The notes beneath the pieces were generated by a model that was not told where the DNA came from, ran no database searches, and saw only the letters and a program-made list of their open reading frames with translations. From the NCBI GenBank assembly GCA_032718475.1, contig JAUCBJ010006644.1, forward strand, positions 1 to 51,487: a stretch of 51,487 nucleotides of DNA, read 5' to 3'. Each line of letters opens with the position of its first letter. The stretch's first letter is position 1. A program made the position numbers and the translations under genes. Positions 12,228 through 51,487 of the stretch are shown piece by piece. The DNA comes from Nemertoderma westbladi. Taxonomy: Eukaryota > Animalia > Xenacoelomorpha.

Positions 12228-12426
12228 GATTAGCGCCTTTTCGACTTTGTTAGCGAACGTCTTAATGCTAACGGGATTATCCTGTAGGCCACCGCGATGT
12301 TATGCCTCTCAGCGTCTGCCTGATGATCTTGGCCGGGTGCCCGTATTCCCTATCCAGTGCCCGCCATGCTGTCGTGAAGCCGCCCTCTATTCCTTGATAT
12401 TGCCTCACGATGTCGTATGCTGGGCC

Positions 12427-13598: not shown

Positions 13599-13702
13599 GC
13601 CGCTGGGGATACTCGCAATCCCCCTATTACTTTCCTGACCAAATTGGTTTACTACGGAAGATCCGCAGTGGGCACACCTGAGCGGGTGTGGGCCACTCGG
13701 AC

Positions 13703-14176
13703 TAGGACTTTGTAATTATTTTGCAAATATTGGGACCATGCATTTTCTAACTTACAGGTTTCGTTGTATTGCTTGGATCAAACTTATCCTTTATTCTATA
13801 ATGCGTGGTATTTTACTCTCCGACATCGGTAGAGGTGAAGAGGTGTGTTGTTGGTCTGCCTCTGCGTCATTGGGGCGGGGGGGGGGGGGGGGGGGTGTGT
13901 TGGGGCAAGTGTCAGATTCATCTATTTGTGTTGATGGTTGGTGAGGATTCTACTTCTGGCTAGGTCTGGCCTAGAGTAGAAGCAGTTCCGCGGCAATAAT
14001 AATATTGCTCCTCAAAAGAGGGCCCTTACTGCATCAGGGACGCGTTTTTCGACAGAGCCCCGTCAGCTGAAACAGCCAGTGCCGCTAGTCGGTGGGGTTG
14101 ACTTGTTGACGAGAGGCTATTATGAGGCGCAATGGGATACGCATTGCGTATCTCCTTCTGTCAACCAATACTGGCC
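13703..14176 (+). repeat. Uninterrupted copy of the ~470-bp dispersed repeat
   Basis: Reverse complement of 5285-5653 plus 6907-6995, including the long G run. Confidence 0.85.
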
Positions 14177-24982: not shown

Positions 24983-25013
24983 ATGTGTAAAAATCCTTGT
25001 GTGTATGTCACGA

Positions 25014-27073: not shown

Positions 27074-27611
27074 TGTGACGGGATCCAGGAGGGATCCCGA
27101 TTTATCCGATGTGGTATTTAGTCCACGCGTCCCCGCCGTGTATAAGAGTGAAATAAAGATAACTGAGTTCTGAAGTTCGGTGTATAATAATAGGTTATAG
27201 GATATAGATATATTGTGAATTATACGGTAGGCGGGATACGGTAACTAAAGTCCCGTGATCCCCTAACTAAACTAATTGGCTGTACCCTATGCTAGCACTG
27301 CTGCACTGAGATAACTGAATCACTGATTAATAGGTTATTGGTTATATTGCACGGTGGCCTTACTGCTACTCAATCGATGCCATTCCCCCCTCTGATTGGT
27401 TAATACCCTTGTTGGCGCCCCGTGGAGTATTCCCGTTCACTCCACCTGTTCTCCTTGGGTTAGGGGTTTGGCCCCTGACCCTCTATTGTGTGCTTCCTTC
27501 CCACTCTTATTGGGATGGCACGAGTTGGTTAATTGCCCAATCTCGTGGCTCCCAATATTGCTTATCGGCTAATAACTTTATGGGGTGTTGGCGGGATTGA
27601 ATAAGCTAACA
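27074..27611 (-). repeat. 3' LTR
   Basis: 538 bp; I found one substitution versus 40793-41330 (CCCTATG vs CCCTACG). Confidence 0.97.
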
Positions 27612-27649
27612 CTCCCCCCCATGCTATCTTCCCGGTAAGAAGATAGCAT
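27612..27649 (-). other. Polypurine tract with adjacent 11-bp stem-loop
   Basis: GGGGGGGAG on the minus strand abuts the LTR; ATGCTATCTTC-CCGGTAA-GAAGATAGCAT lies at 27621-27649. Confidence 0.85.
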
Positions 27650-28321
27650 CAACCAAAAAAGTGCGCTACAATCCCGCTGGATCCCGATCTAGTATCGGGT
27701 GTGGGGTGGAATTCTTTTCTCTTGGAGCCGGCTTTCCAGGCCGCCCCCTATGGGTATGATAACGCTACCCTGTGTGCCTGGCGTCTCATGTCGGGCCGAT
27801 CGCGCTCACCTCTTCACGCGATTTTTGTTTCCCCAACACTTTCGCCCTACCTCCCCTCTACTCTCACCCTAACTCTCTCATACCCCCGGACCTCCTCGTC
27901 CCTCACTCAGCCTCTTATTCTCCCCCCCCCCCCACACTAGAATTGCGCTCGCACTCTCTCCGCACTTCACACTCTTATTCCGATTCTCAACTCCACTTTG
28001 ACTGTTTTATCTCTCCTGACGAACCTCCCCCCCTCTCGTGCCGCCGCACTCAAGAAGCGTGAAATTGTCAGTTGTCTCGTCCATAGTGCCATAGTCAATT
28101 GTCCCCCAGTCCCAGTAGCTAATTGAGAAAGGTTGTATGACTATAGTACTTACTCCGAACGTATGTATTTTACTGCTAATCACTACGTACGTACATACGA
28201 ATTGCACTTATATGGTTATTTGCATTAATTAAATTTATACTTAATAGTTCGTACGTTACATGCGGCGCCTTCCAGGCGCACCACTTCCCAGTCTCAGTCT
28301 CATTCCCCCGTCTCCGGGAAC

Positions 28322-30856: not shown

Positions 30857-31370
30857 TCCGAACACTACACTCGCTCACCTGTAGGGTGGTGCCTTACCAA
30901 GGCGCAATACAGATGAGTGATGTATTAAGATGTTTCGTACAGTTCGATAATGGCCTACTTTTCTACTTAACTGCGCCTTTCAAGCTTAATTTAATCTAAT
31001 TAATTTCGGAGCTAGTAAATCAGCCTAATTTACAATTTCCGTCCGTTACTTTTATTATGTTCTAGAACGACTTTCCTTGTGTTACCACTATTTTCCGATT
31101 TTTTAGCCCTATTCTATTTATTTATTTATTTTGCTTTGATTCTACTGTCCTACTACTTACTACTGCCTATGGATTTATTCTATTCTCTCTCTGATCCATA
31201 TTCTGGCCTACTCAGTGGGCCTATGCAGTACAGCAGTATGCGTCGTGTGGCCACACGATTTATCCAGCTGCACTCATATGCCCCCCTCTCTCTACTAACT
31301 CTACTTACTGCTAACTAATATCTATATCCTATTTACCCCTTTTACCTCTCACTCTCTCTCTCTAACTAAT

Positions 31371-32020
31371 GGTACTACGTACCCCCTAACTCTAACTCTA
31401 ACTAGGTATCACGTACCTACTAACTCTAACTCTAACTAGGTACTACGTACCTACTAACTCTAACTAACTATTGGTACTACGTACCCTCTAACTCTAACTC
31501 TAACTAGGTACTACGTACCTACTAACTCTCTAACTATCGGTACTACGTACCCTCTAACTCTAACTCTAACTAGGTACTACGTACCTACTAACTCTCTAAC
31601 TGTCGGTACTACGTACCTACTAACTAACTCTAGGTACTACGTACCTACTAACTCTCTAACTATCGGTACTACGTACCCTCTAACTCTAACTCTAACTAGG
31701 TACTACGTACCTACTAACTCTCTTACTATCGGTACTACGTACCTACTAACTCTAACTCTAACTAGGTACTACGTACCCACTAACTCTCTTACTATCGGTA
31801 CTACGTACCCTCTAACTCTAACTCTAACTAGGTACTACGTACCTACTAACTCTCTAACTATCGGTACTACGTACCCTCTAACTAACTAACTCTAGGTACT
31901 ACGTACCTACTAACTAACTAACTTTAGGTACTACGTACCTACTAACTAACTAACTCTAGGTACTACGTACCTACTAACTAACTAACTTTAGGTACTACGT
32001 ACCTACTAACTAACTAACTA
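31371..32020. repeat. Internal tandem array, about 20 units of ~33 bp with a palindromic core
   Basis: GGTACTACGTACC cores separated by variable TAACTC/TAAC microrepeats. Confidence 0.92.
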
Positions 32021-32128
32021 TTATTTTTATTTTATTTTATTTTTATTTGTGTGGGAAGGGCGTCTCGCCCTCAATCCCACCCCCCTCAGTCCAAAACTTG
32101 GACGACTAAACTCCACTCTAACTCCGCT

Positions 32129-35100
32129 CTAAGGTGCTCCTTCTAAGAGACAGCATTTACCTACTGCTCTCCTGTAGGTTTTTCTGTCCTTCGCACCTAT
32201 CTTTCCACCTATCCGCACTTCTACCGATCGGACTCTTCCGTCCTCGTCGGAGTAGGTGCCTACAACTCTCGCCAACCGCCATTGGTTGTTGATGATAGTA
32301 TCATCCGTGACGATTACGAGATCTCCCTCTCTTAACTCCCTGTTCGGCTTCCTCCACTTGCTTCGCTTATGGAGAGTGGGTAGGTATTCTTCTACCCACC
32401 TCCTCCAATACTCTGCGCTTATTGCTTTAGCGACTTTCCAACTCTGGCGGGAATGTATGTCATCTGGGTCTACACCCCGCATATCGATGGTCGCTGGCCT
32501 TTCCATCAGAAAATGGCTAGGCGTCAGCACGTCTAACGACTCAGGGTCATCATTCTCCGGATATAGCGGTCTGCTATTAATGATCCCCTCGCACTTCGCA
32601 AGTACCGTCCGTAAGACGTCTTCAGTGACCATGTGGGTGTTCATCAGCTTCATCATTAGACGTTTTGAACTGCCCACCAGTCTTTCGACGCATCCTAGTG
32701 TATGTGGTGCATACGGCGTCCGTCTCTCCCACTTTACTTGTCGTCTCCTCATGGCCGCCCTGACTTCTTCTCCCTCCAAGATGTCTAAGGCCTCTGCCAT
32801 CTCACTCTCTGCGCCCACAAAGTTGGTGCCGTTGTCGCTATATATCACTGCGATCGTCCCACCTTTGCGGTCCCTAAACCTTTCTAAGGCGTTAATGAAC
32901 GCTGATGCGGTTGCATCTTGGGCGAGTTCTATCCCTACCGCCCGCGTATTGTTGCATACGAAGATAATACCGTAGCGTTTCTCCGTGTGTCGCATCACTT
33001 TGATCTTTATCGGCCCGAACATGTCCACACCGCAATGCGTAAATGGCGGGTCGTGCTGTCTTACCCTACTCGCCGGTAGTGGCGCCATCTCCTGTACGGC
33101 TCGTTCCTTCTTCGCTCGCCGGCAGGTCTGGCACTGCCCCACTACCGCTTTAACCTTCTTCCTTAGTTGTTTGACCCAATAGGTCCTCCTTATCTCTGTG
33201 AGGGTTCGGTTGGTGCCCCCATGCAGTATCGATTTGTGGGAGTCCCATATGATCTGGTGGACTATAGGCGATCCTGTGGGAATGATGATGGGTTTCGGTG
33301 GCACGACTATACTGTTGTTATATCCCACCCTAGAATTCATTACTAGAATCCCATCCTCGTTGAGTTGTGGCGACAGCGTGATCAACCCGCTGTCCCGTCG
33401 GAGGTGCTGTTGGTTGCCGACACGTTCCACTTCGTCGCTGTAGTTCTTGCGTTGTTCATAGCGGATCACTGCATTGGCCGCTCCTTCCAGATCTATGGTT
33501 GTCCTGGTCTTCTTGTACTTGCCGACTCCCGCAAGGAAATTCCCAAAGGCTCTCCAGTACGCCACTAATTTCTTGGTCTTATACCAACTAGAACTGTAGC
33601 TGAGGAGTTTATCCGTCGGGTTATCGCACAGTTCCCTTCCTGGTTGCACGTCCCTAATCTCCCTCACCATCTGGGAGTATATCTCTTCTCCCTCTGAATC
33701 TCCCTCTCCTTCTGATACTGGTTCCGAGCCCGGGTCCACCTTCCTCATCGGCGGCCAGGCCTCTCTATCGCTCAGAAATTGTGGCCCATGTTGCCACAAT
33801 ACTTCCTTCTTCAGGAAAGTGTGGCGTTCCACGCCCCTCGACAGCAAGTCCGCTGGGTTCTCATCTGTTGGGCAGTAGTGCCACCTTTCCAGTTCTGTGC
33901 TCGCCCTTATTTCGTCCACTCTATTTGCGACGAATATCGGGTATCTCGTCTTTTCGTTGTGTAGCCAACCAAGCACTACCATGGAGTCCGTCCAGTAGTG
34001 TGTCTCCACTATGTTGGGAATTGTATCCACTAGGTAGGCTGTGGCTCTAACTCCTAGTCTCGCAGCTGTCAATTCTAGCTTAGGAACAGATGCTGAATCT
34101 GGCGGCGTTGACTTAGCTTTGCTAAAGGCTAGTCTGGGCTTGTGAGCCCCCTCTCGTTGTACTAAATAGAGTGCCGCTCCGTATGCCTCTAACGACGCGT
34201 CGGAGAACATATGTAGGTCCAGATTCGTCATGTTCCCGTCCGGGACGTATACTCGCGGCATGTTATATGTTCCCATCCTCTCCAAGTCTCCTGTCCATTT
34301 GCTCCACTGTTTCTTGATGTCTTCTGGTACCTCTACATCCCACTCATCCTTCAACTTATATACTCTCTTGAGTATCTGTTTCCCCGTGACTAGTAATGGG
34401 GATGCTAGGCCTAGGGGATCGTATATCCTTGCTATATACGATACATAACCCCTCTTCGTATGGGTGTCTGCGCCCTCTTGGCTCAGCTGATACTTCAGTT
34501 CGTCTGTTCCTCTATCCCACACGATTCCCAATGCCTTTTGCTGCGATTGTGTTCTCTTATTTGCCATGTCCTGTCCTTTGGCTGTTGTAGGGTTGTCCAT
34601 GGTCGATTCCGGTTTCTTGTCTTCTATTTCCTTGATAAATTCTTCTGAACTGGATTGGAATTTGGTCAGGTTGAAGCCGGATCCTTTCAGGATGTCGCGA
34701 ACCTCGCGCCCTGTTTCCAGTATCTCCTCAACCGTATTTCCAGACTCCATACCGTCATCTACGTAGAAGCCGCGTCGGATCATATCGACGGCCCTACTGC
34801 TGTATCTATCTTCTTTCCCCTTTACCGTGTCTCTCACTGCCATAGTCGTCGTAAATGAGGACGACTTGGCCCCCATATTTTGTACTACCATCCTATACGC
34901 TGGTATTACCGGCGGTTCTTCTTCGCCGTTATACCATAAGAAGCGTTGACTGTCACTATCTTCTTCCGTTACACGTACCTGGTTGAACATGCCTTCTATG
35001 TCACACGTGAAGGCGTGTTTCCCGTTTCGAAACCTAAGTAACACCTCTATGCCCGAATTGTAAATATTTGGGCCTTCCAACAGGTAATCGTTTAAGCATT

Positions 35101-37336
35101 TTCCGTCGGTCTTTGCCGATGCATCGACTACCATCCTAAGTTTACCTTTCTTCGGGTCTAAAGCTACGTGGAGAAGCAGGTAGTATGTCCTGTCCGTGTT
35201 CGGTTCGTCGACCGGTAACTCCACGGCCCATCCCTTCTCGACGTACTTCTTGATCGTTTTGTGAATGTACTCGTTCTTCTCGGGGCTCCGTTGTAGTGTT
35301 TGTTTCAGTTTGCGGAGTCTCGTGAGTACCATCCCTCTATTATCGGGTAGCGGTATCTTCGGTAGTTTCCATACCATTCCTATTGTATACCGCCCCTCAT
35401 CACACGTCATCGATTCCTCCACACTTTGTAGAGCCTGCTTGTCTTCTACCGAGGTCCCGACCCCTGTCTCTTTCAGTCCCTCAAAGTCTTGTCTGAGCAG
35501 TCTTTTAAGCTGCTCCTCTGCTCCCTCGTCACCCATTTCCTGCATTGTTCCCGCGAACATGCATCCTGATGTCTCCGACATCCTGAATGGTATCTTGCTC
35601 TTAATTGGACCACTCAGCGTCCACCCGAATGGCGTTAATATGGCCACCGGGTCGCTCTGCTTGTCTTCGCCGAAGACCGTTTGCATTCTCTCGTGGGCCG
35701 TTGGGCAGTCCATGCCTACTATGATGGATACCTTCCTAACGTCCACGTCTGGGATTGAGAAGTCAATGTTGTCCAGGAATTTGTATTGCTCGACCTCGAT
35801 GTTGGTTGGCCGCCTGGCATTGATGTTAATTGACTCTATTACTTGGATGGGGTCGATGGTTGCCCCATAATCGCATCCTGGTGCCACTGCTGCAATTGCG
35901 CACCGTCCTGTCCTCATCTCTAGGATCTCGTCTTTGCTAGAGATGGTTGTCACCGCCATCCTGCTTGGCCTCGTTCTCAACCCTATTTCTTCGGCTACCC
36001 ATTCCTCAACTAATGTGAAGGCAGCTCCACTATCAACCAGCATTAGTGTTGTTACTGATCGATTGCCTTCCCCGATCACTCGTACTGGTACTACTCCAAG
36101 TAGCACTGTTCCTCTCTTCTTCACCCCTACCGTGCTCGTTGCCATCGTCTGGCCTCTCCTTTGGCCAAACTTGACCGGCTTCTCTTGGCATTCCCTGGCC
36201 TTGTGTCCACTCTTTACACATCGCGAGCAGATTTTATTGCTCGACGCGTAATCTATCTGGTCTTGCCTCGGTAGCGCCTGCCAGTACCTGCAGTTCATGG
36301 TTTTATGAAGCGCATTTGCGTGTAACTGGCATTTGCTCTTTGGGTCGTAGCCCTCTTTATACAATGCATTGCGTATCGCAGTTATATTCGTACCAAAGTC
36401 CCTACTATTCTTATTGACTGGATTTGGCCTACTGGACGTACTGGGGTTATGTTTATTCATGTTGTTATTGTTCCCCTGTCCGTCCCTTGATGTTGTCTTA
36501 TCTTCGCTTGTCTGTGGACTTGCAGTCCCCTGCGTCGCTGCGTATGGCAATGATTGCCTGAGTCTCGGTAACGCGTTCGATGTATTGTGCTCTGGTTTGG
36601 GCCTGTAGTGATCTGTCTTTGGTCCCTTTCCCAGGCTATCTTCACTATAAACTGGGTCCGTTATTAGTTCAGCCTCGTAATTTAAGAAGTTTGACATTTC
36701 TTCTAAACCTGGTTCCGCACCCTTCTTGTCTCGGGTGGAGAAAGCGATCTTCCTCCATTTGTTGCGCAGCCAACTCGGTAGTGCCTGCGCTATCGTGGTG
36801 ATGTTATTGGACGCGTTGAGCTCGTATGGCGCGTCTAGCGTCTTCAGCACGATCAGCGCCTTCTCGACTTTGTTAGCAAACGTCTTAATGCTAACGGGAT
36901 TATCCTGTAGGCCACCCGATGTTATGCCTCTCAGCGTTTGCCTGATGATCTTGGCCGGGTGCCCGTATTCCCTATCCAGTGCCCGCCATGCTGTCGTGAA
37001 GCCGCCCTCTATCCCCTGATATTGCCTCACGATGTCGTATGCTGGGCCTCCCGTGTACACTTGTAGATACTTTAGGCACTCCGCCTGCGTCAAGTTTTTT
37101 GTTAGTATTTCGTTACTATACATTCGCCGAAACTGTAAGTATTCTTCCGGCCTGCTCCCATCGAATTTGAACGGTTCCACGGGTGGTAATTCGATCCTCG
37201 TTTTCAACGCATCGATCAACGTGGCCATCCCCATTGCCTGCGCTTCTAATGGATTCGACGGGTGCTGTATAGTTTCCCCTGTCTGGTGCGGTTCGTCCGT
37301 CCTATTTCTTAATCTTCTCTGACTCGGATATGTCAT
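32129..37336 (-). CDS. pol: BEL/Pao Gag-Pol polyprotein (1735 aa open)
   Basis: Gag FDGS..EY..F, knuckle CSRCVKSGHKAREC, protease LVDSGA, RT FYVDDG, RNase H LHMFSDAS..AYGA and WTDS, integrase HHCC plus GVDMFGP, SDNGTNF and GCVERL, and the C-terminal WRRWVEEYLPTL typical of BEL/Pao. Confidence 0.97.
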   Translation of the reverse strand: MTYPSQRRLRNRTDEPHQTGETIQHPSNPLEAQAMGMATLIDALKTRIELPPVEPFKFDGSRPEEYLQFRRMYSNEILTKNLTQAECLKYLQVYTGGPAYDIVRQYQGIEGGFTTAWRALDREYGHPAKIIRQTLRGITSGGLQDNPVSIKTFANKVEKALIVLKTLDAPYELNASNNITTIAQALPSWLRNKWRKIAFSTRDKKGAEPGLEEMSNFLNYEAELITDPVYSEDSLGKGPKTDHYRPKPEHNTSNALPRLRQSLPYAATQGTASPQTSEDKTTSRDGQGNNNNMNKHNPSTSSRPNPVNKNSRDFGTNITAIRNALYKEGYDPKSKCQLHANALHKTMNCRYWQALPRQDQIDYASSNKICSRCVKSGHKARECQEKPVKFGQRRGQTMATSTVGVKKRGTVLLGVVPVRVIGEGNRSVTTLMLVDSGAAFTLVEEWVAEEIGLRTRPSRMAVTTISSKDEILEMRTGRCAIAAVAPGCDYGATIDPIQVIESININARRPTNIEVEQYKFLDNIDFSIPDVDVRKVSIIVGMDCPTAHERMQTVFGEDKQSDPVAILTPFGWTLSGPIKSKIPFRMSETSGCMFAGTMQEMGDEGAEEQLKRLLRQDFEGLKETGVGTSVEDKQALQSVEESMTCDEGRYTIGMVWKLPKIPLPDNRGMVLTRLRKLKQTLQRSPEKNEYIHKTIKKYVEKGWAVELPVDEPNTDRTYYLLLHVALDPKKGKLRMVVDASAKTDGKCLNDYLLEGPNIYNSGIEVLLRFRNGKHAFTCDIEGMFNQVRVTEEDSDSQRFLWYNGEEEPPVIPAYRMVVQNMGAKSSSFTTTMAVRDTVKGKEDRYSSRAVDMIRRGFYVDDGMESGNTVEEILETGREVRDILKGSGFNLTKFQSSSEEFIKEIEDKKPESTMDNPTTAKGQDMANKRTQSQQKALGIVWDRGTDELKYQLSQEGADTHTKRGYVSYIARIYDPLGLASPLLVTGKQILKRVYKLKDEWDVEVPEDIKKQWSKWTGDLERMGTYNMPRVYVPDGNMTNLDLHMFSDASLEAYGAALYLVQREGAHKPRLAFSKAKSTPPDSASVPKLELTAARLGVRATAYLVDTIPNIVETHYWTDSMVVLGWLHNEKTRYPIFVANRVDEIRASTELERWHYCPTDENPADLLSRGVERHTFLKKEVLWQHGPQFLSDREAWPPMRKVDPGSEPVSEGEGDSEGEEIYSQMVREIRDVQPGRELCDNPTDKLLSYSSSWYKTKKLVAYWRAFGNFLAGVGKYKKTRTTIDLEGAANAVIRYEQRKNYSDEVERVGNQQHLRRDSGLITLSPQLNEDGILVMNSRVGYNNSIVVPPKPIIIPTGSPIVHQIIWDSHKSILHGGTNRTLTEIRRTYWVKQLRKKVKAVVGQCQTCRRAKKERAVQEMAPLPASRVRQHDPPFTHCGVDMFGPIKIKVMRHTEKRYGIIFVCNNTRAVGIELAQDATASAFINALERFRDRKGGTIAVIYSDNGTNFVGAESEMAEALDILEGEEVRAAMRRRQVKWERRTPYAPHTLGCVERLVGSSKRLMMKLMNTHMVTEDVLRTVLAKCEGIINSRPLYPENDDPESLDVLTPSHFLMERPATIDMRGVDPDDIHSRQSWKVAKAISAEYWRRWVEEYLPTLHKRSKWRKPNRELREGDLVIVTDDTIINNQWRLARVVGTYSDEDGRVRSVEVRIGGKIGAKDRKTYRRAVGKCCLLEGAP

Positions 37337-37448
37337 CGGGGGTAGCGGCCCCCTCCATATGTCTGTATCACACGACCTGTTTTCATCTAGGGGTCTCGTT
37401 GTTCTTGTTCCTGTCGGGGTATATTGTTGATATTGCGATGGGGGAATG

Positions 37449-39245
37449 TCACCCTGTCCCCCCCCCCACCGGTATGTCTGGTACTGGGGTTGATGTTAAT
37501 ATGTTGGGGCCCATACACCTATCCGCAATAATTCCCCCCTCCCCTGGGTATATGTTATGTCCCTGCATGCTGTAGTCATACTGCTGTGCTGGTACCGGTA
37601 TAGGCCTATCAGCTTCTGGCCTACTCGCCGGTATGTATTCCGCGACTTCCGGGTTTAATCCCATCGTCCGCGCTATCCTATCGCCTACATTGCCTCTCTC
37701 AGTATGGCCTACGGTATGTGCAGTAAGACCTACAGTATGCCCTACAGTCTGCATGTGTTGCTCGGGATCGAAGTTTATTCTTCTCGAATAATCCTCCCCG
37801 CGGCTACCGTATTCTCGATCGGTAGGTATATTCCGTCGGAAAGTTTCTCTTCGACCCCTCTCTCCACTGTTTTCATCTTCGTACCGGTACATCGCGTACC
37901 CCTCTCTCGGCGTGTAATGCGTCTCACCGGATCGCATCCCTCCGGGGCGACGGCAATCTCCCGGAGTCCGACCCCACTGACTTTCCGTTCTCATCTCGAC
38001 TACCGACGGCTCGCTGTCCGTCCTCGCTCTTCTATCGTTTGCGGCGATACTCCTACTACTGTCTTCCTCTCTTCTCCTATCAGTGGAATATTCCCGCTCA
38101 CGAGATCTCTCGTCGACCTCCCGGTTAAACCCCACTGTTCTTCTTTCCTCCTCTGATCGGGCTCGACGCTCCGTCTGCCCTCCCGCGACGTCAACCTGTC
38201 TTTCTCTGCTCGATCGCACGTCGCTGGGGATACTCGCAATCCCCCTATTACTTTCCGTCGCCGGTTGTTGCGGTTTACCTTGTTCGGCCCTCGCATTATC
38301 CGCTGACGGCTGTGGGACACTCTCTGCCCCCCCCCTTCTCGCCACTAACTCTCTGTTGTGGGGCCCTCGTAGCCCCCCCCCCCCCCACTCGCTACATCTA
38401 ACTTCGCTACCTCTCGCCCCGCTACTATATATCTCTCTAGTCGACACATCAACCCTACCACAGTCGTGTCTGTTCACCCCCGCCTCTCCCTCTGCTATTG
38501 CGTTGCCTTCCAGGCCCTCTACTCCCTGCCTACCAACCACGCGGCCTACCAGGCCCTCTCCTCCCTGTCTACTAACTACGCGGCCTACCAGGCCCTCTGC
38601 TCCCTGTCTACTAACTACGTGGCCTACCAGGCCCTCTGCTCCCTGGTTACATAGGCCCGACGTGTTTACATTAATAGCACCCATATTGGAAACGGAATTA
38701 ATTTGCTCATTTGAAACAAAATCATTTGTATTATTCTGCGCGACTACGTTATCTGAATTATTTTGTAAATTCGGGCTAAGATCATTATTTGAATTATTCG
38801 AATTATTCTGTGTAATTGCGTTATTTAAGTTATTTTGTAGGTCCGAATTCGAGTTATTATTTTGATTATTTGAATTATTTTGCGTAACTACATCAATATT
38901 AGGATTATTTTCTACATTATCACTGGGATTGTTCTGATTTAAATTTAAATTACTACCACTAGGCAAAGTATTTCCTGTAATAAAGGTTTGATTAGCGTTA
39001 TCCCATACGGTACTATTAATATCAACAACGTCTACTGTACCATTATTATTACCCCCCCCGCCCGTACGGTCGCACCAGTTTTGGGTCTGTCGTGCGGTCC
39101 CTGTCAGTGGAGTATTAATAAATATATCTACGGCCCTCGGCTCCTCAAAAATACTCGAGCCGGCCCCAGTTTCAGACGGCGGTCCCACTCGCACGTATTC
39201 CAACTCGTGCTCCCCTCTAATTATATTTCCCGCAAACTCACTCAC
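37449..39245 (-). CDS. Low-complexity N-terminal gag extension, part 2 (Asn-rich, 13-aa repeats)
   Basis: 598-aa ORF ending just after a 10-G run; the adjacent frame runs on into gag-pol. Confidence 0.7.
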   Translation of the reverse strand: MSEFAGNIIRGEHELEYVRVGPPSETGAGSSIFEEPRAVDIFINTPLTGTARQTQNWCDRTGGGGNNNGTVDVVDINSTVWDNANQTFITGNTLPSGSNLNLNQNNPSDNVENNPNIDVVTQNNSNNQNNNSNSDLQNNLNNAITQNNSNNSNNDLSPNLQNNSDNVVAQNNTNDFVSNEQINSVSNMGAINVNTSGLCNQGAEGLVGHVVSRQGAEGLVGRVVSRQGGEGLVGRVVGRQGVEGLEGNAIAEGEAGVNRHDCGRVDVSTREIYSSGARGSEVRCSEWGGGGLRGPHNRELVARRGGAESVPQPSADNARAEQGKPQQPATESNRGIASIPSDVRSSRERQVDVAGGQTERRARSEEERRTVGFNREVDERSREREYSTDRRREEDSSRSIAANDRRARTDSEPSVVEMRTESQWGRTPGDCRRPGGMRSGETHYTPREGYAMYRYEDENSGERGRRETFRRNIPTDREYGSRGEDYSRRINFDPEQHMQTVGHTVGLTAHTVGHTERGNVGDRIARTMGLNPEVAEYIPASRPEADRPIPVPAQQYDYSMQGHNIYPGEGGIIADRCMGPNILTSTPVPDIPVGGGTG

Positions 39246-40678
39246 CGTTTCTTTAATTCCTTGCGCTCCTTTTCACTCTCTGCCACTATCCCCTCACGCT
39301 CCTGGGTGTCCTTGATGGCCGAGTCTGCGGCACTCTTAATGCTCTCCCTTCGTCTCGCCCCACGCTCTTTGCGTTCCTTTTCCTTTCTCGTCTCATATTC
39401 CTTGCGTTCCGCCTCACGCTCCTTGCGTTCCCTTTCCTCCCTTGCCTCACGCTCCTTGCGTTCCCCTTCCTCTCTCGCCTCACGCTCCTTGCGTTCCTTT
39501 TCCATTCTCGCCTCACGCTCCTTGCGTTCCGCCTCACGCTCCTTGCGTTCCCTTTCCTCTCTCGCTTCACGCTCCCTACACTCCCTTTCCTCTATCTCAT
39601 CATACTCCCTTAGGCTTTTCAAAGCCCTTTCGGCCCTTTCTCCGGTTTCTCTAAGCAATACCGTTTCCCTCTCTAACCGCACTCTTCCCTCCTCTAGCCG
39701 TTCCTTCATTTCTCTCTGACCTTGCTCTGCCATGCTGAGACGGTATGCGGCTCCTATTTTTCTCACCGCTCTTTCTTTCGCGGAGGATGTAGCAGACTTA
39801 TCGGTTACGACGGACTTCCCCCGCCTTCCCGACCTACTAACTTTCTCCCACTTCCCGGAGCTTTCTCCGACCGACGAGGCCGAATCCTCGGTGTTAACCT
39901 CGGATTCGCCCCCTTCGAGTCCCCTCCAACCCACCGGTTTTACTCCCCGGGCATCGACCAAGTATGGCCCTATGTACACTGGCGCTACACTAGGTTCCAT
40001 ACTCCCACACTCCCATAGTTCAAACAGTTCGCCGGCTATCCTTTCTGCTCTCTCCCCGGCCAGTTCTCTCTGCCCAAAACGTATTAGGTAATTTAAGTGT
40101 CTATCCGACTCACCTAGTCGCTTTCTCACTCTCACCTCGTCTACCTTCGCCCCTTCCTTCTTGGCGTCGTTTATCAGCTTCCGGGTCGCGTTGTAGGCCC
40201 GTCGAAGTCGCTCAGAAACCCCGACGTCCTCGTCGCCGACCTCTCCTCCGTCCCTCCGGGTCCGACGTCGTACCGGCGGCTCCACCGTCGCCGTTCCGGT
40301 GGGCCGTCCGTCGCCCTCGGCCTGTAGCTGGCCGGCGACATCGGTACCGATCTCTCCTCCGTCTCTTCGTGTCCGGCGTCGCACCGTCGGCCCCACCGTC
40401 GCCGTTTCGGTGGGCCGCCCGTCGCCCTCGGCCTGTAGCTGGCCGGCGACATCGGCGCGCCGTTCTCCCTCTCGTGTCGACTCATCTCCTTCTCCCTCCG
40501 TCTCGCTCTCTCTCTCTCTTGGCTCGACTTCGGGTTCCAGGCCCTCCTCGTCCTGTACTTCCGGTTCGCCCGTTATCGATGGCTCCGGCGTCGTGGGCCT
40601 GTATCGTTTGGTCGCGGCCTCGCGGATCGTTAGGTCTTCGTCCGGGGTCCGCGTCGGTGTCTCGCCCGATTCACTCAT
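39242..40678 (-). CDS. N-terminal gag extension, part 1 (37-aa duplication, E/R/K coiled-coil-like repeats)
   Basis: 478-aa ATG-initiated ORF starting about 115 bp inside the 5' LTR boundary and overlapping the next ORF by 4 nt. Confidence 0.7.
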   Translation of the reverse strand: MSESGETPTRTPDEDLTIREAATKRYRPTTPEPSITGEPEVQDEEGLEPEVEPRERESETEGEGDESTREGERRADVAGQLQAEGDGRPTETATVGPTVRRRTRRDGGEIGTDVAGQLQAEGDGRPTGTATVEPPVRRRTRRDGGEVGDEDVGVSERLRRAYNATRKLINDAKKEGAKVDEVRVRKRLGESDRHLNYLIRFGQRELAGERAERIAGELFELWECGSMEPSVAPVYIGPYLVDARGVKPVGWRGLEGGESEVNTEDSASSVGESSGKWEKVSRSGRRGKSVVTDKSATSSAKERAVRKIGAAYRLSMAEQGQREMKERLEEGRVRLERETVLLRETGERAERALKSLREYDEIEERECREREAREERERKEREAERKEREARMEKERKEREAREEGERKEREAREERERKEREAERKEYETRKEKERKERGARRRESIKSAADSAIKDTQEREGIVAESEKERKELKKR

Positions 40679-40792
40679 CTCGTTTGTGGCTGATGATTCG
40701 GCTAGCTAGGTTGCAGTTCTTAGAGTTTGACTAGGGCGGCAGCTCGGTTTAGTTACTGAGTTTAGCTGGGGAAGCAACACCGTTTTAGTTAC

Positions 40793-41330
40793 TGTGACGG
40801 GATCCAGGAGGGATCCCGATTTATCCGATGTGGTATTTAGTCCACGCGTCCCCGCCGTGTATAAGAGTGAAATAAAGATAACTGAGTTCTGAAGTTCGGT
40901 GTATAATAATAGGTTATAGGATATAGATATATTGTGAATTATACGGTAGGCGGGATACGGTAACTAAAGTCCCGTGATCCCCTAACTAAACTAATTGGCT
41001 GTACCCTACGCTAGCACTGCTGCACTGAGATAACTGAATCACTGATTAATAGGTTATTGGTTATATTGCACGGTGGCCTTACTGCTACTCAATCGATGCC
41101 ATTCCCCCCTCTGATTGGTTAATACCCTTGTTGGCGCCCCGTGGAGTATTCCCGTTCACTCCACCTGTTCTCCTTGGGTTAGGGGTTTGGCCCCTGACCC
41201 TCTATTGTGTGCTTCCTTCCCACTCTTATTGGGATGGCACGAGTTGGTTAATTGCCCAATCTCGTGGCTCCCAATATTGCTTATCGGCTAATAACTTTAT
41301 GGGGTGTTGGCGGGATTGAATAAGCTAACA
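40793..41330 (-). repeat. 5' LTR
   Basis: 538 bp, TGTTAGC...CGTCACA on the minus strand, flanked by the TTCAG TSD. Confidence 0.97.
41031..41067 (-). promoter_or_regulatory. Candidate LTR core promoter (TATA plus initiator)
   Basis: Minus-strand TATAA starts at 41065 and the A of TCAGTT is at 41035, 30 nt apart. A similar CAATATA...TTCAGTTAT occurs in the related LTR at about 50814-50855. Confidence 0.4.
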
Positions 41331-41335
41331 TTCAG

Positions 41336-44300
41336 TTTCCATGACAACCACTACAAACAGACGTTTTAGCAATTAAATCCTTTGTTTTACACATTAACTA
41401 CTCAATGAAACTGAATTGAAGTATGTGTCACCTGGAACCACAAACCGGATCTTAATGTAATCCTCAGCAGTTCTAGAAAATTCTGGTTGCCATTGTAATA
41501 TGAGTTTTTAAGGCATATGCCTCTTAACTCGGTAAAGCAATGAAGTGATGAGTCAAAGAGTGTTGAATTTTCCTTAGCTTCGTGGTTGCATTTCCTTTAG
41601 GAAATGCCTTTCTAGTACACGAAGCTAAGGAAAATCAACTACTTTCGCTAAGAAAGATTTTCCTTAGCTGAGATGGTGTATTCATAGTGGGCTATTTTAC
41701 TTGTGTGAGGCAGATTTAGTGTTTTTTGGTCGGGGAAAAAACTAGCCTTTAAAAGTACCCTGAAATTTTGCATGTATGTACTACTCATCGAGGCGCGTCG
41801 TGTGGGATGGGTCTCATATTCAGGAAAAATCTGGTTTCCATGGCAACGGACTTAGAAAAAAGTCTATGTATTTCAAGTCAATATTTATAACTCTATTTGT
41901 AGGAAAACTATAATACATATAAACTTGGGATTTCTCAACTCAACTATAAGGTCCATAGCAGAGCCGATTGAGGTTAAATAGAAATTCCAGTTACCTTGGC
42001 AACCGGGCTAAACAGATGTTAAAATTTATAAAATGTTAATTTGAAGCCTAAGGTTAATGTGTTATGTCTTGGGACCAACCCCTACCCCCACTATATGACT
42101 TATTCTGCGTCCGAATTTCATTGTTTAATTTTGCAGTTACCATGACAACCGCTGAAAACAGATGTTTTTATACAAAAATAACTCATTTGGACATAGACTT
42201 CGCGATAAAATTTTACGAAATTGGATATGTGTTATCTGGACCACTAGTTGGAACTTTTAGTAAAACCTAAAACATTCCATAAATATCTTGTTACCATGGT
42301 AACTGGAGTTTATTAAAGTCGATATCATTCAAGTCTAAATTCAATACTCTATTTGCAGCAAAATAATGTAATAAATATAAATTTGGGGTTTTGCAAGTCA
42401 TCTGTAAGGTCCATATACAATCCATTCGAGGTTAATTACACAATCCAATTACCATAGCAACAAGACTAAACAGATGTTAAAATTTCTAAAATGATAATTT
42501 GAAACACAAGTTAATAGTATTATGACTTGGGACCAAGACCTACCCCCATTATATGACTTATTCTGCATCCGAATTACATTGTTCTATTTTTCAGTTTCCA
42601 TGACAACCACTGCAAACAGATGCATTATGATAGAAAATCGGTAATTTGGACATAAACTACAATATTTTCTGAAACTTGGTATGTGTTATCTGAACCACAA
42701 TCTGGACTGAATCTTTTTTCAAAGGTAAAACCAACAGTTCCAGAGAATTCTAGTTTCCATGGGAATATAAGTTATTTATTGGCAAATGCTACTAAACTAG
42801 GCTAAGCAACAAACCAAATTATGGCCCTTTGTTTAATTTTCCTTAGCTTCGTGGTTGCATTTCCTTTAGGAAATGCCTTTCTAGTATGTGTTATCTGAAC
42901 CACAATCTGGACTGAATCTTTTTTCAAAGGTAAAACCAACAGTTCCAGAGAGATCCACGAAGCTAAGGAAAATCAACTACTTTCGCTAAGAAAGATTTTC
43001 CTTAGCTGAGATGGTGTATTCATAGTGGGCTATTTTACTTGTATGGAGCAGATTTAGTGTTTTTTGATTCCGGAAAAAACTAGCCTTTAAAAGTACCCTG
43101 AAATTTTGCATGTATGTACTACTCGTCGAGGCGCATCGTGTGGGCTGGGTCTCATATCCAGGAAAAATCTGGTTTCCATGGCAACGGACTTAGAAAAAAG
43201 TCTATGTATTTCAAGTCAATATTTATAACTATATTTGTAGGAAAACTATAATAGATATAAACTTGGGGTTTCTCAACTCAACTATAAGGTCCATAGCAGA
43301 GCCGATTGAGGTTAAATAGAAAATCCAGTTACCTTGGCAACCGGGATAAACAGATGTTAAAATTTATAAAATGTTAATTTGAAGCCTAAGGACAAGGTGT
43401 TATTACTTGGGACCAAACCCTACCCCCACTATATAACTTATTCTGCGTCCAAATTTCATTGTTCTATTTTGCAGTTACCATGACAACCGCTGAAAACAGA
43501 TGTTTTTATACAAAAATAACTCATTTGGACATATACTTCGCGATAAAATTTTACCAAACTGGGTATGTGTTATCTGGACCAATAGTTGGAACTTTTAGTG
43601 AAACTCAAAACATTCCAGAAATATCTTGTTACCACGGTAACTGGAGTTTATTAAAGTCTATATCATTCAAGTCTAAATTCAATACTCTATAAATATTCTC
43701 GTATTGTGTGAGGCAGATTTGTTTTTTTTAAGTCCAGCAAAAACTAGCCTTTAAAAGTACCCTGAAATTTTGCATGTATATACTACTCGTCGAGGCGCAT
43801 CTTTTGGGCTGGGTCTCATATCCAGGAAAAATCTGGTTTCCATGGCAACGGACTTAGAAAAAAGTCTATGTATTTCAAGTCAATATTTAAAACTCTATTT
43901 GTAGGAAAACTATAATAGATATAAACTTGGGGTTTCTCAACACAACTATAAGGTCCATAGCAGAGCCGATTGAGGTTAAATAGAAAATCCAGTTACCTTG
44001 GCAACAGGGATAAACAGATGTTAAAATTTATAAAATGTTAATTTGAAGCCTAAGGTTAAGGCGTTATGACTAGGGACCAATCCCTACCCCCACTATATAA
44101 CATATTCTGCATCCGAATTTGATTGTTCTATTTTGCAGTTACCATAACAACCGCTGAAAACAGATGTTTTTACACAAAAATTACTCATTTGGACATATAC
44201 TTCGCGATAAAATTTCAGGAAACTGGGTATGTGTTATCTGGACCACTAGTTGGAACTATTAGTGAAACTCAAAACATACCAGAAATATCTAGTTACCATG

Positions 44301-47300
44301 GTAACTGGAGTTTATTAAAGTCTATATTATTCAAGTATATATTCATAACTCTATTTGTAGCAAAACTGTAATATATATAAACTTGGGGTTTTGCAACTCA
44401 TCTATAAGGTCCATATACAAGCCGTTTGAGGTTAATTAGAAAATCCATTTACCATAGCAACCAGACTAAACAGATTTTCAAATTTATAAAATGATAATTT
44501 GAAGCACAAGTTAATAGTATTATGACTTGGGACCAAGACCTACCCCCACTATATGACTTATTCTACATCCGAATTACATTGTTCTATTTTTCAGTTTCCA
44601 TGACAACCACTGCAAACAGATGCATTTTGATCCACGAAGCTAAGGAAAATCAACTACTTTCGCTAAGAAAGATTTTCCTTAGCTGAGATGGTCTATTCAT
44701 AGTGGGCTGTTTTACTTGTATGGAGCAGATTTAGTGTTTTTTGATAGGTGAAAAAACTAGCCTTTAAAAGTACCCTGAAATTTTGCATGTATATACAACT
44801 CATCAAGGCGCGTCGTGTGGGATGGGTCTCATATCCTGGAAAAATCTGGTTTCCATGGCAACGGACTTAGAAAAAAGTCTATGTATTTCAAGTCAATATT
44901 TCTAACTCTATTTGTAGGAAAACTATAATACATATAAACTTGGGGTTTCTCAACACAACTATAAGATCCATAGCAGAGCCAATTGAGGTTAAATAGAAAA
45001 TCCAGTTACCTTGGCAACCGGGCTAAACAGATGTTAAAATTTTTAAAATGTTAATTTGAAGCCTAAGGTTAAGGTGTGATGACTTGGGACCAATCCCTAC
45101 CCCCACTATATAACTTATTCTGCGTCCGAATTTGATTGTTCTATTTTGCAGTTACCATGACAACCGCTGAAAACAGATGTTTTTATACAACAATTATTCA
45201 TTTGGACATAGACTTCACGATAAAATTTTACAAAACTGGGTATGTGTTATCTGGACCACTAGTTGGAACTTTTAGTGAAACTCAAAACATTCCAGAAATA
45301 TCTAGTTACCATGGTAACTGGAGCTTATTAAAGTCAATATCATTCAAGTCTATATTTTTAACTCTTGTTTGTAGGAAAACTGTATTAGATATAAATATTG
45401 GGTTTCCCAACTCAACTATAAGGAAGGTCCTTAGAGGAGCCAATTGTGGTTAATTAGAAAATCCAGTTACCTTGGTAACCAGGCTAAACAGATGTTATAA
45501 TTTAAAAAATTATAATTAGAAACACAAGTTAAAGGCATTATGACTTGGGACCAACCCCTACCACCATAATATCACTTATTCTGCATCCAATCTACGTTGT
45601 TCTATTTGCCAGTTACCTTGACAACCACTGCAAACAGACTTTTTAACAAATTAATAATTAATTTTGAACATAAACTACTCAATGAAGCTTCCTTGAAGTC
45701 GATGTGTCACCTGGAACCACAAACTAGATCTTAATGTAAAACTCAGCATTTCTAGAAAAGTCCAGTTACCTTGGCAATACCGGGAGTTCTTTTAACTCGG
45801 TAAATCAATGAAATGATGAGTCAAAGAGTGTTTAATTTTCCTTAGCTTCGTGGTTGCATTTCCTTTAGGAAATGCCTTTCTAGTAGAAAATCTGTAATTT
45901 GGACATAAACTACAATATTTTCTGAAACTCGGTATATGTGTTATCTGAACCACAATCTGGACTAAATCTTCTTTCAAAGGTAAAACCAGCAGTTCCAGAA
46001 AACTCTAGTTTCCATGGGAATAGAAGTTATTTATTGGCAAATGCTACTAAACTAGGCTAAGCAACAAACCAAATTGTGGCCCTTTGTTTAATTTTCCTTA
46101 GCTTCGTGGTTGCATTTCCTTTAGGAAATGCCTTTCTAGTAACTCTATTTGTAGCAAAACTGTAATCCACGAAGCTAAGGAAAATCAACTACTTTCGCTA
46201 AGAAAGATATTCCTTAGCTGAGATGGTGTATTCATAGTGGGCTATTTTACTTGTATGGAGCAGATTTAGTGTTTTTTAAGTCCAGCAAAAACTAGCCTTT
46301 AAAAGTACCCTGAAATTTTGCATGTATATACAACTCATCAAGGCGCGTCGTGTGGGATGGGTCTCATATCCAGGAAAAATCTGGTTTCCATGGCAACGGA
46401 CTTAGAAAAAAGTCTATGTATTTCAAGTCAATATTTGTAACTCTATTTGTGGGAAAACTATAATACATATAAACTTGGGGTTTCTCAACACAACTATAAG
46501 GTCCATAGCAGAGCCGATTGAGGTTAAATAGAAAATCCAGTTACCTGGGCAACCGGGCTAAACAGATGTTTAAATTTTTAAAATGTTAATTTGAAGCCTA
46601 AGGTTAAGGTGTGATGATTTGGGACCAATCCCTACCCCCACTATATAACTTATTCTGCGTCCGAATTTGATTGTTCTATTTTGCAGTTACCTTGACAACC
46701 GCTGAAAACAGATGTTTTTATACAAAAATTATTCATTTGGACATAGACTTCACGATAAAATTTTACGAAACTAGGTACGTGTTATCTGGACCACTAGTTG
46801 GAACTTTTAGTGAAACTCAAAACATTCCAGAAATATCTAGTTACCATGGTAACTGTAGTTTTTTTAAAGTCTATATCATTCAAGTCTATATTCATAACTC
46901 TATTTGGAGCAAAACTGTAATATATATAAACTTGGGGATTTGCAACTCATCTATAAGGTCCATATACAAGCCGTTCGAAGTTAATTAGAAAATCCAGTTA
47001 CCATAGCAACAAGACTAAACAGATGTTAAAATTAATAAAATGATAATTTGAAGCACAATTTAATAGTATTATGACTTGGGACCAACACCTACCCCCACTA
47101 TATGACTTATTCTGCATCCGAATTACATTGTTCTATTTTTCAGTTTCCATGACAACCACTGCAAACAGATTCATTTTGATAGAAAATCTGTAATTTGGAC
47201 ATAAACTACAATATTTTCTGAAACTCGATATGTGTTATCTGAAAAACAATCTGGACTGAATCTTTTTTCAAAGGTAAAACCAACAGTTCCAGAGAACTCT

Positions 47301-48649
47301 ACATAGTTTCCATGGGAATATAAGTTATTTATTGGCAAATGCTCCTAAACTAGGCTAAGCAACGAACCAAATTGTGGCCGTTTGTTTAATTTTCCTTAGC
47401 TTCGTGGTTGCATTTCCTTTAGGAAATGCCTTTCTAGTACAGTTACCATAGCAACAAGTCTAAACAGATGTTAAAATTTATAAAATGATAATTTGAAGCA
47501 CAAGTTAATAGTATTATGACTTGGGACTAACCCCTACCCCCACTATATGACTTATTCTGCATCCGAATCCACGAAGCTAAGGAAAATCAACTACTTTCGC
47601 TAAGAAAGATTTTCCTTAGCTGAGATGGTCTATTCATAGTGGGCTATTTTACTTGTGTGGGGCAGATTTAGTGTTTTTTAAGTCCAGCAAAAACTAGCCT
47701 TTAAAAGTACCCTGAAATTTTGCATGTATATACTACTCATCAAGGCGCGTCGTGTGGGATGGGTCTCATATCCAGGAAAAATCTGGTTTCCATGGCAACG
47801 GACTTTTAAAAAAGTCTATGTATTTCAAGTCAATATTTATAATTCTATTTGTAGAAAAACTATAATAGATATAAACTTGGGGTTTCTCAATTCAACTATA
47901 AGGTCCATAGCTGAGCCGATTGAGGTTAAATAGAAAATCCAGTTACCTTGGCAACCGGGCTAAACAGATGTTAAAATTTATTAAATGTTAATTTGAAGCC
48001 TAAGGTTAAGGTGATATGACTTGGGACCAACCCCTACCCCCACTATATACCTTATTCTGCGTCCGAATTTCATTGTTTTATTTTGCAGTTACCATGACAA
48101 CCGCTGAAAACAGATGTTTTTATACAAAAATTACTCATTTTGACATAGACTTCATGATAAAATTTTATGAAACTGCGTATGTGTTATGTGGACCACTAGT
48201 TGGAACTTTTAGTGAAACTCAAAACATTCCAGAAATATCTAGTTACCATGGTAACTGGAGTTTATTAAAGTCTATATCATTCAAGTCTAAATTCAATACT
48301 CTATTTGTAGCAAAATAATGTAATATATATAAATTTGGGGTTTTGCAACACATCTATAAGGTCCATATACAAGCCGTTCGAGGTTAATTACACAATCCAG
48401 TTACCATAGCAACAATATTAAACAGATGTTAAAATTTATAAAATGATAATTTTAAGCACAAGTTAATAGTATAATGACTTGGGACCAAGACCTACCCCCA
48501 CTATATGACTTATTCTGCATCCGAATTACATTGTTCTATTTTTCAGTTTCCATGACAACCACTGCAAACAGATGCATTGTGAATTGTGGCCCTTTGTTTA
48601 ATTTTCCTTAGCTTCGTGGTTGCATTTCCTTTAGGAAATGCCTTTCTAG
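41336..48649 (+). mobile_element. Cluster of tandem and nested non-autonomous Helitron-type copies
   Basis: 5' ends at 41616 (TA variant), 42954, 44631, 46166 and 47568. Hairpin-CTAG|T 3' ends at 41615, 42884, 45883, 46139, 47437 and 48649. Copy 47568-48649 is 1082 bp and nearly identical to copy B. Confidence 0.85.
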
Positions 48650-49461
48650 TATATTTGATTTCTAGTTTATCTATAAGTCAGTATACTAAATCAGGCTCAT
48701 CTGTTTTATGTCTACCATACTGTCAGACATCATAAGACACTTAAATTAGCAGGTTAAACTGCTAAAGGTCTAAAAGCGCGAACACTGTACCACGTGTGTA
48801 ACGTACTCAATCATGTGTAGCTTACTGGACCACATATGTAACTATATATAGCTATATAACTATATAAAATATTAATAAAATTATAATAAAATTATATTAT
48901 AAATAATATTAAAATGTTATAATTAGCAACCATGCAGTAGACAAATTATCTCATATAGTGTTGCTAATATCAGCTACGTAGTGTAGCTGATGAGCCAAAT
49001 CCCTCGAAACACATGCAAAAATGTAACCAATGTGATAATTTTACTTACAGTATTTAAACAGGGTTGCGCTTTGTGTCCCTGCTCTAATAAAACGATGACT
49101 ACTTACGGTTGAACAGATAGGAACATGTTGTTTCTCTGTTTCCAAATAATTTACCTTGCTTGATATTGGTCTGTCAAAAACATAATTCGTTCAACTCAAA
49201 ATTATATAAATATATATATATATAAATATAATAATAATAATAATAAAATATCTCAGCTCGTGAAAAAATAAGCTAAATGAATTATTGGGGATACCACTTA
49301 CTTATTTTACGCCTAATATAAAGTAGGAATATAAGTCGTATAAAGTAGAATAGCCATAATAAAACGTTTCAGTGGCAGGGAACCATTGCCAAGTACCGGA
49401 GCCGGAGAGGAGAACCTTGCACTTGTAGCCCCTCAGCGGCGGAAGGATGAAGTTCCAATGA

Positions 49462-50500
49462 GTCACAACAACCCGTTATCGAACCAACCTCACAACACCC
49501 CGTTATCGAACCAACCTCACAACAACACGTTATCGAACCAACCTCACAACACCCCATTATAGAACCAACCTCACAACACCCTGTTATCGAACCAACGTCA
49601 TAACAACCCGTTTTCGAACCAACTACACAACACCCCGTTATTGAATCAACGTCACAACACCCCGTTATCGAACCAACCTCACAACACCCCGTTATCGAAC
49701 CAACATCACAACAACCCGTTATCGAACCAACCTCATAACAACCCGTTATCGAACCAACCTCACAATACCCTGTTATCGAACCAACCTCACAACACCCTGT
49801 TATCGAACCAACATCATAACAACCCGTTTTCAAACCAACCTCACAATACCCTGTTATCGAACCAACATCACAACACCCCGTTATCGAACCAACTACACAA
49901 CACCCCGTTATCAAACCAACGTTACAACACCCCGTTATCGAACCAACCTCACAACACCCCGTTATCGAACCAACTACACAACACCCCGTTATCGAACCAA
50001 CCTCACAACACCCCGTTATCGAACCAACATCACAACAACCCGTTATCGAACCAACTACACAACACCCTGTTATCGAACCAACCTCACAACAACCCGTTAT
50101 CGAACCAACCTCACAATACCCTGTTATCGAACCAAAGTCACAACAACCCATTATCGAACCAACTACACAACTCCCCGTTATCGAACCAACTACACAACAC
50201 CCCGTTATCGAACCAACCTCACAACACCCATTTATCGAACCAACATCACAACAACCCATTATCGAACCAACTACACAACACCCCGTTATCGAACCAACCT
50301 CACAACACCCCGTTATCGAACCAACATCACAACAACCCGTTATTGAAACAACTACACAACACCCCATTATCGAACCAACCTCACAACACCCCGTTATCGA
50401 ACCAACATCACAACAACCCGTTATCGAACCAACTACACAACACCCCGTTATCGAACCAACTACACAACACCCCGTTATTGAACCAACCTCACAACACCCT
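49462..50500. repeat. 27-bp minisatellite, about 38 copies
   Basis: Unit CCCCGTTATCGAACCAACCTCACAACA; it produces the 9-aa periodic ORFs on both strands. Confidence 0.95.
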
Positions 50501-51113
50501 GTGAGCGGATTCAATTCCGCCCACCACCCCATAAAGTTGGGAAACGGCGCCTTTTAGCAATATTGGGGATACGAGGTTAATCTCCAATTAACCTCGTATC
50601 ACACAACCAATAACGGGGACAACAAACCCCCAAAGGGCCACACAAATGGAGGTCAGAGGTTAAACCTCCGGGAGAGGGAAAGTGACAGCAGCAGGGGGGG
50701 GGGGGGGGGGAAACACTCCCACAGAGGTGGGAGCCAAGAATTAGGTTATTGGCCAATGGGGGACAAGGAAAGTGCATCCGCTAAGTAACAAGGCCACAAG
50801 TAAAGTAGGTAATCAATATATTACCGGTTGGTGTTTTATATCCTAGTTCAGTTATATCAGTCACTTAGGGCAGTATGGTGACACTTTAATACCATCACGC
50901 CGTCACCAATCATATATATCATATTTTACCGGTACATGACAATATTACCCTATTCAATCTGAACTGTGCTATCATATATTACCGATCGTATACTATATTC
51001 TACATTTGGAGTTTATCAATAACATTGGAACAACAACAAACTCTTTTCCATTCGCACGGTGATGCTGACGCGTAAATAAATCAAACCGGTCGGGATCCTC
51101 TGATCCTGTCACA
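50500..51113 (+). mobile_element. LTR (614 bp) of a related BEL/Pao family
   Basis: Start TGTGAGCGGATTCAATTCCGCCCACCACCCCATAAAGTT and end CGGGATCCTCTGATCCTGTCACA resemble the sense-strand ends of the 538-bp LTR. Confidence 0.85.
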
Positions 51114-51129
51114 GTATTAAAGTCGCTTA

Positions 51130-51487
51130 CTGGCCTAGGGGCTGGCTCGGGTAGTGTTCACGAGGAGCCAGAAGTTATGGAAACGTTTGTTAATACCCCA
51201 CTTACAGGGACTTAGATAATAGTAATAGTAATTTAAATCCGAACGATCCTAATTTAAATGTAGGAAATAATTCAAATAATCTAGATTCGAATATACAAAA
51301 TAATTCAAATAATTTAAATTTTAATACGCAAAATAATCTAAATAATAACCTTAATTTAAACGAACAAAATAACCCCAATTCTAACCAAAATAATTCTAAT
51401 AATTTAAATAATTCAGAAAATAATATTAATAATGGTGCTATTAATGTAAACGCGGCAGATGTAGGTGGTCCGACCAGTAGGGGCCTG
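51130..51487 (+). pseudogene. Degenerate homolog of the Asn-rich gag extension, running off the window
   Basis: GAGSGSVHEEPEVMETFVNTPLTGT* and NNGAINVN match GAGSSIFEEPRAVDIFINTPLTGT and NMGAINVN in ORF 37449-39245. Confidence 0.75.

Follow-up and report, generated by a model that had tools for sequence, protein, structure and literature searches.

Two BEL/Pao retrotransposon families in a 51,487 nt contig of Nemertoderma westbladi (JAUCBJ010006644.1, analysed over its whole length and called the window below) probably self-prime reverse transcription with their own RNA, in a manner like that of Tf1. In both the intact main element and a second-family element (element 3), the sequence directly behind the 5' LTR, from the first base onward, complements a site within that same LTR. 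The self-priming that a sequence-only reading had suggested from this complement is well supported by an extended, element-specific predicted duplex and by similar self-complements in the sequences of ten of eleven BEL/Pao elements.

The elements of the window

The main element (27074-41330, minus strand) is an intact BEL/Pao retrotransposon of 14.3 kb. It has TG...CA LTRs of 538 bp (5' LTR 40793-41330 and 3' LTR 27074-27611, both minus) with a single mismatch between them, a polypurine tract adjoining the 3' LTR (27612-27620, minus) and a 5 bp target duplication (27069-27073 and 41331-41335), all present as in BEL/Pao. The 1788 aa open frame of its gag-pol (32129-37495, minus) has Pfam matches to DUF1759, protease, Peptidase_A17, integrase and DUF5641 in the Pao-type domain order PR-RT-RH-IN, which assigns the element to BEL/Pao; its closest protein relatives have the same Pfam set and are 35-40% identical over RT-RNase H. 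Because the LTRs are intact, the polypurine tract and target duplication are present and gag-pol is open, the element must have replicated recently without a TGG site. Its insertion site is a tract of long complex repeats with units of ~460-730 bp, which extends to either side of the element at 25013-27073 and 41331-48613.

Two frames precede gag-pol and overlap in different reading frames (37449-40705, minus): ORF1 (39242-40705, minus; 487 aa, Glu/Arg-rich) and ORF2 (37449-39272, minus; 607 aa, with an Asn-rich start), both with zero Pfam matches. Behind pol lies ORF4 (28322-30805, minus; 827 aa), an unusual cargo for a BEL/Pao element. By language-model features its N-terminal portion is similar to 3'-5' exonucleases (score 0.94; PF01612 on 34% of that cluster), and three CCHC knuckles lie downstream of it; searches of Pfam, PDB and homologues gave no match to ORF4, and by none of the searches run is it env-like. 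These features make a 3'-5' exonuclease domain in ORF4 possible.

Element 2 (8736-13635, minus, with its 3' LTR at 8736-9267) is an older, deleted copy of the main family that retains the same core site (see below) as the main element. It also retains the second half of ORF4, to which its deletion fuses the protease region in frame, giving a 772 aa open frame without RT or integrase (9981-12299, minus). An inverted repeat pair of 350 bp and 96% identity (5302-5653 and 13792-14143), possibly a DNA transposon or a rearrangement, flanks element 2 and marks its 5' truncation. There are no tRNA genes in the window.

The element 3 5' LTR (50500-51113, plus; 614 bp, TG...CA) was recognised by homology to the main LTR, with global alignment scores far above those of 100 of 100 shuffles under all four parameter sets and with the 5' start and 3' end conserved. 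Its end was set by this homology, as the second LTR falls outside the window; the window stops 374 nt past the LTR, and the assignment of element 3 to BEL/Pao is by homology of the LTR and the ORF2 region only. The latter is an Asn-rich region start resembling main ORF2 (51140-51487, plus), found by blastn and weak as a protein match. A canonical poly(A) hexamer (51075-51080, plus) is located downstream of the predicted primer end. A 27-bp tandem array (49355-50499) stops exactly at the start of this LTR.

Family 3 is high-copy in the DNA contigs of four public runs, and the copy in the window is probably internally deleted, since the sequences of other copies diverge before 51140. Among the 40 of 215 variants and 24 of 461 loose ends that were listed, X1-X3 have no variant at either core site, X5 has one variant at 50884 and a continuation that differs after 51120, and no copy has a TGG site behind the LTR; a canonical primer-binding site in other copies, which would have told against the sequence-only reading, is thus not seen there. 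The bin with the core is deeper than both neighbouring bins in X1-X3; depth is a poor measure and is not counted as support.

The core complement and its predicted extended duplex

The predicted self-primer core of element 3 (50883-50892, plus; 10 nt, with 50892 as the predicted 3' end of the primer) is complementary, without a mismatch, to the primer-binding-site position (51114-51123, plus), which starts at the first base past the CA end of the LTR with no spacer and no TGG. Each of the two sequences is single-copy in the window, so the exact complement directly behind the LTR, the starting point of the earlier reading, holds. In the main element the predicted core is 9 nt long (40960-40968, minus), and 40968-40960 complements the primer-binding-site position 40792-40784 (minus), again from the first base behind the LTR onward. 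A second copy of this 9-nt binding site is found 36 nt deeper in the main leader (40748-40756, minus), and two of the metagenome relatives described below, L042 and L021, also duplicate their post-LTR site.

The shuffling check proposed along with that reading bears the match out: a 10-nt complement anywhere in the element 3 LTR arose in 8 of 5000 dinucleotide shuffles, and a 9-nt complement in the main element in 10 of 5000 (35 of 5000 if a spacer of 0-3 nt is allowed). When each LTR is paired with the other family's site the match is only 5 and 4 nt. The host flank behind the third LTR copy reached 8 nt by chance, so a lone 9-mer match is no proof. Neither the main element nor element 3 has an 18-nt host tRNA-Arg/Gly site or a TGG start behind its LTR, and an intron that would lengthen the match was looked for within these two LTRs and not found.

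In the predicted folds of both elements the core is the inner end of a longer collinear duplex between LTR and leader. In element 3 this duplex joins 50857-50892 to 51114-51145 (~36 nt, 31 pairs; mean pair probability 0.95 in a fold started at 50850), the upstream extension (50857-50882, plus) pairing with 51124-51145; it is lost to other pairings when the whole LTR is folded (one of four folds), and the end of the extension, 51140-51145, lies across the position at which other copies diverge. In the main element the predicted duplex joins 41042-40960 to 40792-40693 (~83 nt), and its extension (40969-41042, minus) pairs collinearly with leader 40783-40693, nearly to the start of ORF1. With the core removed, the extensions still pair with their own leaders at -28.5 kcal/mol (element 3) and -50.5 kcal/mol (main), strengths reached by 3 of 1000 shuffles each; against the other family's leader 434 and 77 of 1000 shuffles are as good. 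In both elements no other stretch of the LTR pairs as well as the segment adjoining the core. The extension is no exact copy of the leader: compared with the reversed leader, 25 of 36 columns are Watson-Crick identical in element 3 and 58 of 100 in the main element.

Duplex, inner stem and U5 hairpin make up a predicted three-part fold that is common to both elements and built from different letters. The 5' arm of the element 3 inner stem (50897-50911, plus) pairs with 51061-51073 (mean pair probability 0.74-0.86 in three of four folds), and the predicted U5 hairpin lies directly ahead of the LTR end (51089-51110, plus); the commonest variant, at 51107, converts a wobble in this hairpin to a G-C pair. 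The corresponding main-element features are an inner stem of 40959-40949 with 40856-40847 (within 40847-40959, minus; mean probability 0.91) and a U5 hairpin (40798-40818, minus; mean probability 0.98). The duplex limit in both elements falls at a block conserved between the two LTRs by alignment (50846-50862, plus; main LTR 41036-41021), which is a candidate transcription start, as a primer at the 5' end of the transcript, the arrangement in Tf1, would require, and could also be a splice acceptor. In the predicted folds the U3 of each LTR also forms three strong hairpins, which differ in sequence between the two LTRs but occupy corresponding positions (50555-50735 and 41133-41276).

The sequence-only reading had further held that the two core sites align, that both pairing partners had changed together, and that the pairing is therefore under selection. 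The LTRs are homologous as it supposed; the core sites themselves align in two of six alignments, namely with a one-base gap in a 4-sequence MAFFT alignment and in one of four pairwise settings, and are misaligned in the other three pairwise settings and in a sub-region MAFFT alignment. They lie ~180 nt (main) and ~230 nt (element 3) from the LTR end. In the gapped alignment two bases in the main LTR stand against one in element 3, and this difference is mirrored behind the LTR, so a joint change can be read there, but the positional homology it presupposes depends on the alignment; two outer bases are identical in both LTRs yet paired in element 3 only. The equivalence of the two sites rests on structure, on their same role in the predicted folds: in both elements the site's 3' end would be paired to the first base of the leader, the core site would be followed directly by an inner stem formed with part of U5, and a hairpin would stand ahead of the LTR end. 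As to selection, the matched core change is a weaker sign, being one event between two families, and if the site is re-copied from the primer in each cycle such a change would be expected without selection on two separate mutations. Selection is better indicated by the long, imperfect duplex, which is maintained in both families with different sequences.

BEL/Pao relatives from metagenome contigs

Metagenome contigs searched by alignment yielded 79 BEL/Pao loci with 31-38% identity, most of which have no LTR end that can be read. In nine loci a direct repeat fixed the position of the LTR end; the ends of L054 and L070 were set by eye, to within a few bases of where the repeat stops, and the L076 repeat stops at the contig end (its best junction is 12 nt by eye against 11 nt scored by script). 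Two further loci, L061 and L073, were excluded from the count, their repeats being duplicated coding sequence and not LTRs. When these nine are taken together with the window's two, ten of eleven elements contain, within their own LTR, a 9-12 nt stretch complementary to the sequence behind it (reached by 0-1 of 300 shuffles in each case), and in these ten the pairing begins 0-5 nt from the LTR end. The self-complement is contiguous in four (main, element 3, L005 and L054). In the other six (L012, L018, L041, L044, L070 and L076) it becomes complete only when the LTR is joined across an internal GT-AG junction, which lengthens the contiguous match of 6-9 nt to 11-12 nt. A match of this kind, spanning a putative splice junction, suggests that the pairing takes place in RNA. 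All ten have GT at or adjoining the LTR-side end of the paired site, so the predicted primers end alike.

In the eleventh element, L050, a self-match is absent (289 of 300 shuffles) and the site is of the TGG, tRNA type, as it also is in L068. A TGG run follows at once upon the 12-nt splice-junction self-complements of L018 (56-85) and L029, which are in the same supported clade as L050 and L068; these two loci are a possible intermediate between self-priming and tRNA priming. The TGG sites of L050 and L068 and the TGG runs behind the self-complements of L018 and L029 indicate that tRNA priming also occurs among these elements.

An unanchored scan of 59 of the 79 loci, which had no null and also gave chance matches of 9-16 nt, yielded further junction matches of 10-16 nt in L010, L029, L030/L034, L042, L045, L056 (16 nt), L058 and L071 and contiguous matches in L057, L059 and L066; some of these loci belong to families already represented among those with a placed LTR end. 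A tree made by a quick method (66 rows; 7 near-duplicates and short segments excluded) has self-complementary elements in all three deep groups and the tRNA-type pair L050/L068 nested, and gives no direction of change. The main element falls on a long branch that the tree does not place, so a common origin of its site and those of the relatives is no more than a possibility. The LTR patterns had no match in viral contigs or metagenome contigs, and the main-element RT-RH protein had no relative among the viral contigs.

Probable self-priming, its alternatives and its precedents

In the mechanism we favour, transcription would start at the duplex limit and the 5' RNA segment would fold onto the leader as the long duplex, closed by the inner stem and U5 hairpin. 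The element's RNase H would then cut directly after the core (after 50892 in element 3 and after 40960 in the main element), by analogy with Tf1, and the freed 3' end of the core would prime minus-strand DNA. If the primer is copied back into the post-LTR site during plus-strand synthesis in each cycle, as LTR replication normally proceeds, a change in the LTR would be transmitted to its partner site, and by the same copying the sites of relatives would come to match the exon-exon joint. In many of those relatives the primer would be assembled by splicing an intron out of the 5' LTR, the 3' LTR copy keeping the intron; the sequence upstream of the cut would be derived from the 3' LTR copy of the RNA, letting the intron survive. 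Splicing of the 3' LTR copy would give intron-less families like main and element 3, both of which are intron-less at the primer-site position. Whether this extends to a joint history is about an even question in our estimate: self-priming would be common, perhaps ancestral, in much of BEL/Pao, with a primer made from a 5' LTR intron spliced by the host while the 3' LTR stays unspliced, and main and element 3 would be intron-less descendants in which the primer is the capped 5' segment in its entirety (36-83 nt), its complement being left as leader.

The duplex could instead be an RNA-leader switch concerned with packaging, dimer formation or translation control, the same site being primed by a tRNA fragment or another small RNA. 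The length of the duplex, which in the main element nearly reaches ORF1, and the TGG runs of L018 and L029 would suit such a switch; its confinement to 0-5 nt from the LTR end in ten of eleven elements would not, nor would the way in which the letters of the site vary by family and yet track each element's own LTR, in six cases following a putative splice junction, so that no host RNA could match all of the sites. We consider this unlikely. It is quite improbable that the primer is instead the 3' LTR copy, with the RNA 3' end trimmed back to the duplex, perhaps by ORF4, or with a second RNA supplying it. The site does occur in both LTR copies, upstream of the poly(A) signal, and ORF4 has the exonuclease-like features given above; against this, the intron-bearing relatives appear to require a spliced primer but an unspliced 3' LTR, and ORF4 is without a Pfam, PDB or sequence match. 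That the matches are due to chance and the two LTR core sites are non-homologous is highly improbable, even though the alignment of those sites is unstable and a host flank gave 8 nt by chance: the match has P ~0.002 per family, and the self-complements of the relatives, together with the extension test with the core removed, have already largely refuted it.

Self-priming has precedents in other LTR superfamilies, being reported for Tf1/sushi, Tcn1 and TAR/Houba/Osr-1 (PMC6317226, PMC4600332, PMC7175516, PMC3601003, bioRxiv 10.1101/2022.12.06.519325). In Tf1, pairing with the site involves the first 11 bases, and RNase H cuts between bases 11 and 12 (PMC7175516). Tf1, Tf2 and Tj1, of the Tf1/sushi group of Ty3/gypsy chromoviruses, resemble the window's elements in having no tRNA site, a post-CA sequence that complements their own LTR RNA and additional stems flanking the primer duplex (PMC4600332, PMC7175516, bioRxiv 10.1101/2022.12.06.519325). 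In contrast, the main element is BEL/Pao and has no integrase chromodomain match, the predicted duplex is 36-83 nt in the window's elements against the first 11 nt described for Tf1, which would make the primer longer as well, and BEL/Pao relatives complete the match across a putative splice junction. The Tf1 "pretzel" is described as three duplexes whose side stems come from sequence beside the binding site and from LTR downstream of the primer; that arrangement is not predicted here, where an inner stem, a local U5 hairpin and an outer extension take its place. Plant Tcn1 (gypsy) and TAR/Houba/Osr-1 (copia) were predicted to self-prime from the same kind of sign, a complement of at least 10 bp starting 0-5 bp behind the LTR, but belong to other superfamilies, and the accessible part of that report mentions no splice-made primer (PMC6317226).

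For Belpaoviridae, the ICTV describes replication primed by host tRNA-Arg or tRNA-Gly at an 18-nt site, and a size range of 4.2-10 kb (PMC8742986). The main element shares with that description the LTRs, polypurine tract, gag-PR-RT-RH-IN order, Peptidase_A17, DUF1759 and DUF5641, and differs from it in lacking the 18-nt tRNA site, in its 14.3 kb length and in three extra ORFs (PMC8742986). A term search of three BEL/Pao surveys found no mention of a primer-binding site or of priming (PMC554778, PMC6238403, PMC3118150), and searches of the openly accessible literature showed neither a BEL/Pao self-primer nor a splice-made primer. If our reading is right, it would add a third LTR superfamily to those with Tf1-type priming, one for which the reference view is tRNA priming, and would explain why annotation tools seeking tRNA sites miss these BEL/Pao elements. 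In the intron-bearing relatives it would also tie reverse transcription to host splicing, in that only the spliced 5' repeat copy would prime. The C. elegans BEL element Cer7 has reportedly been proposed to encode its own tRNA-like primer, a device other than the LTR self-primer proposed here.
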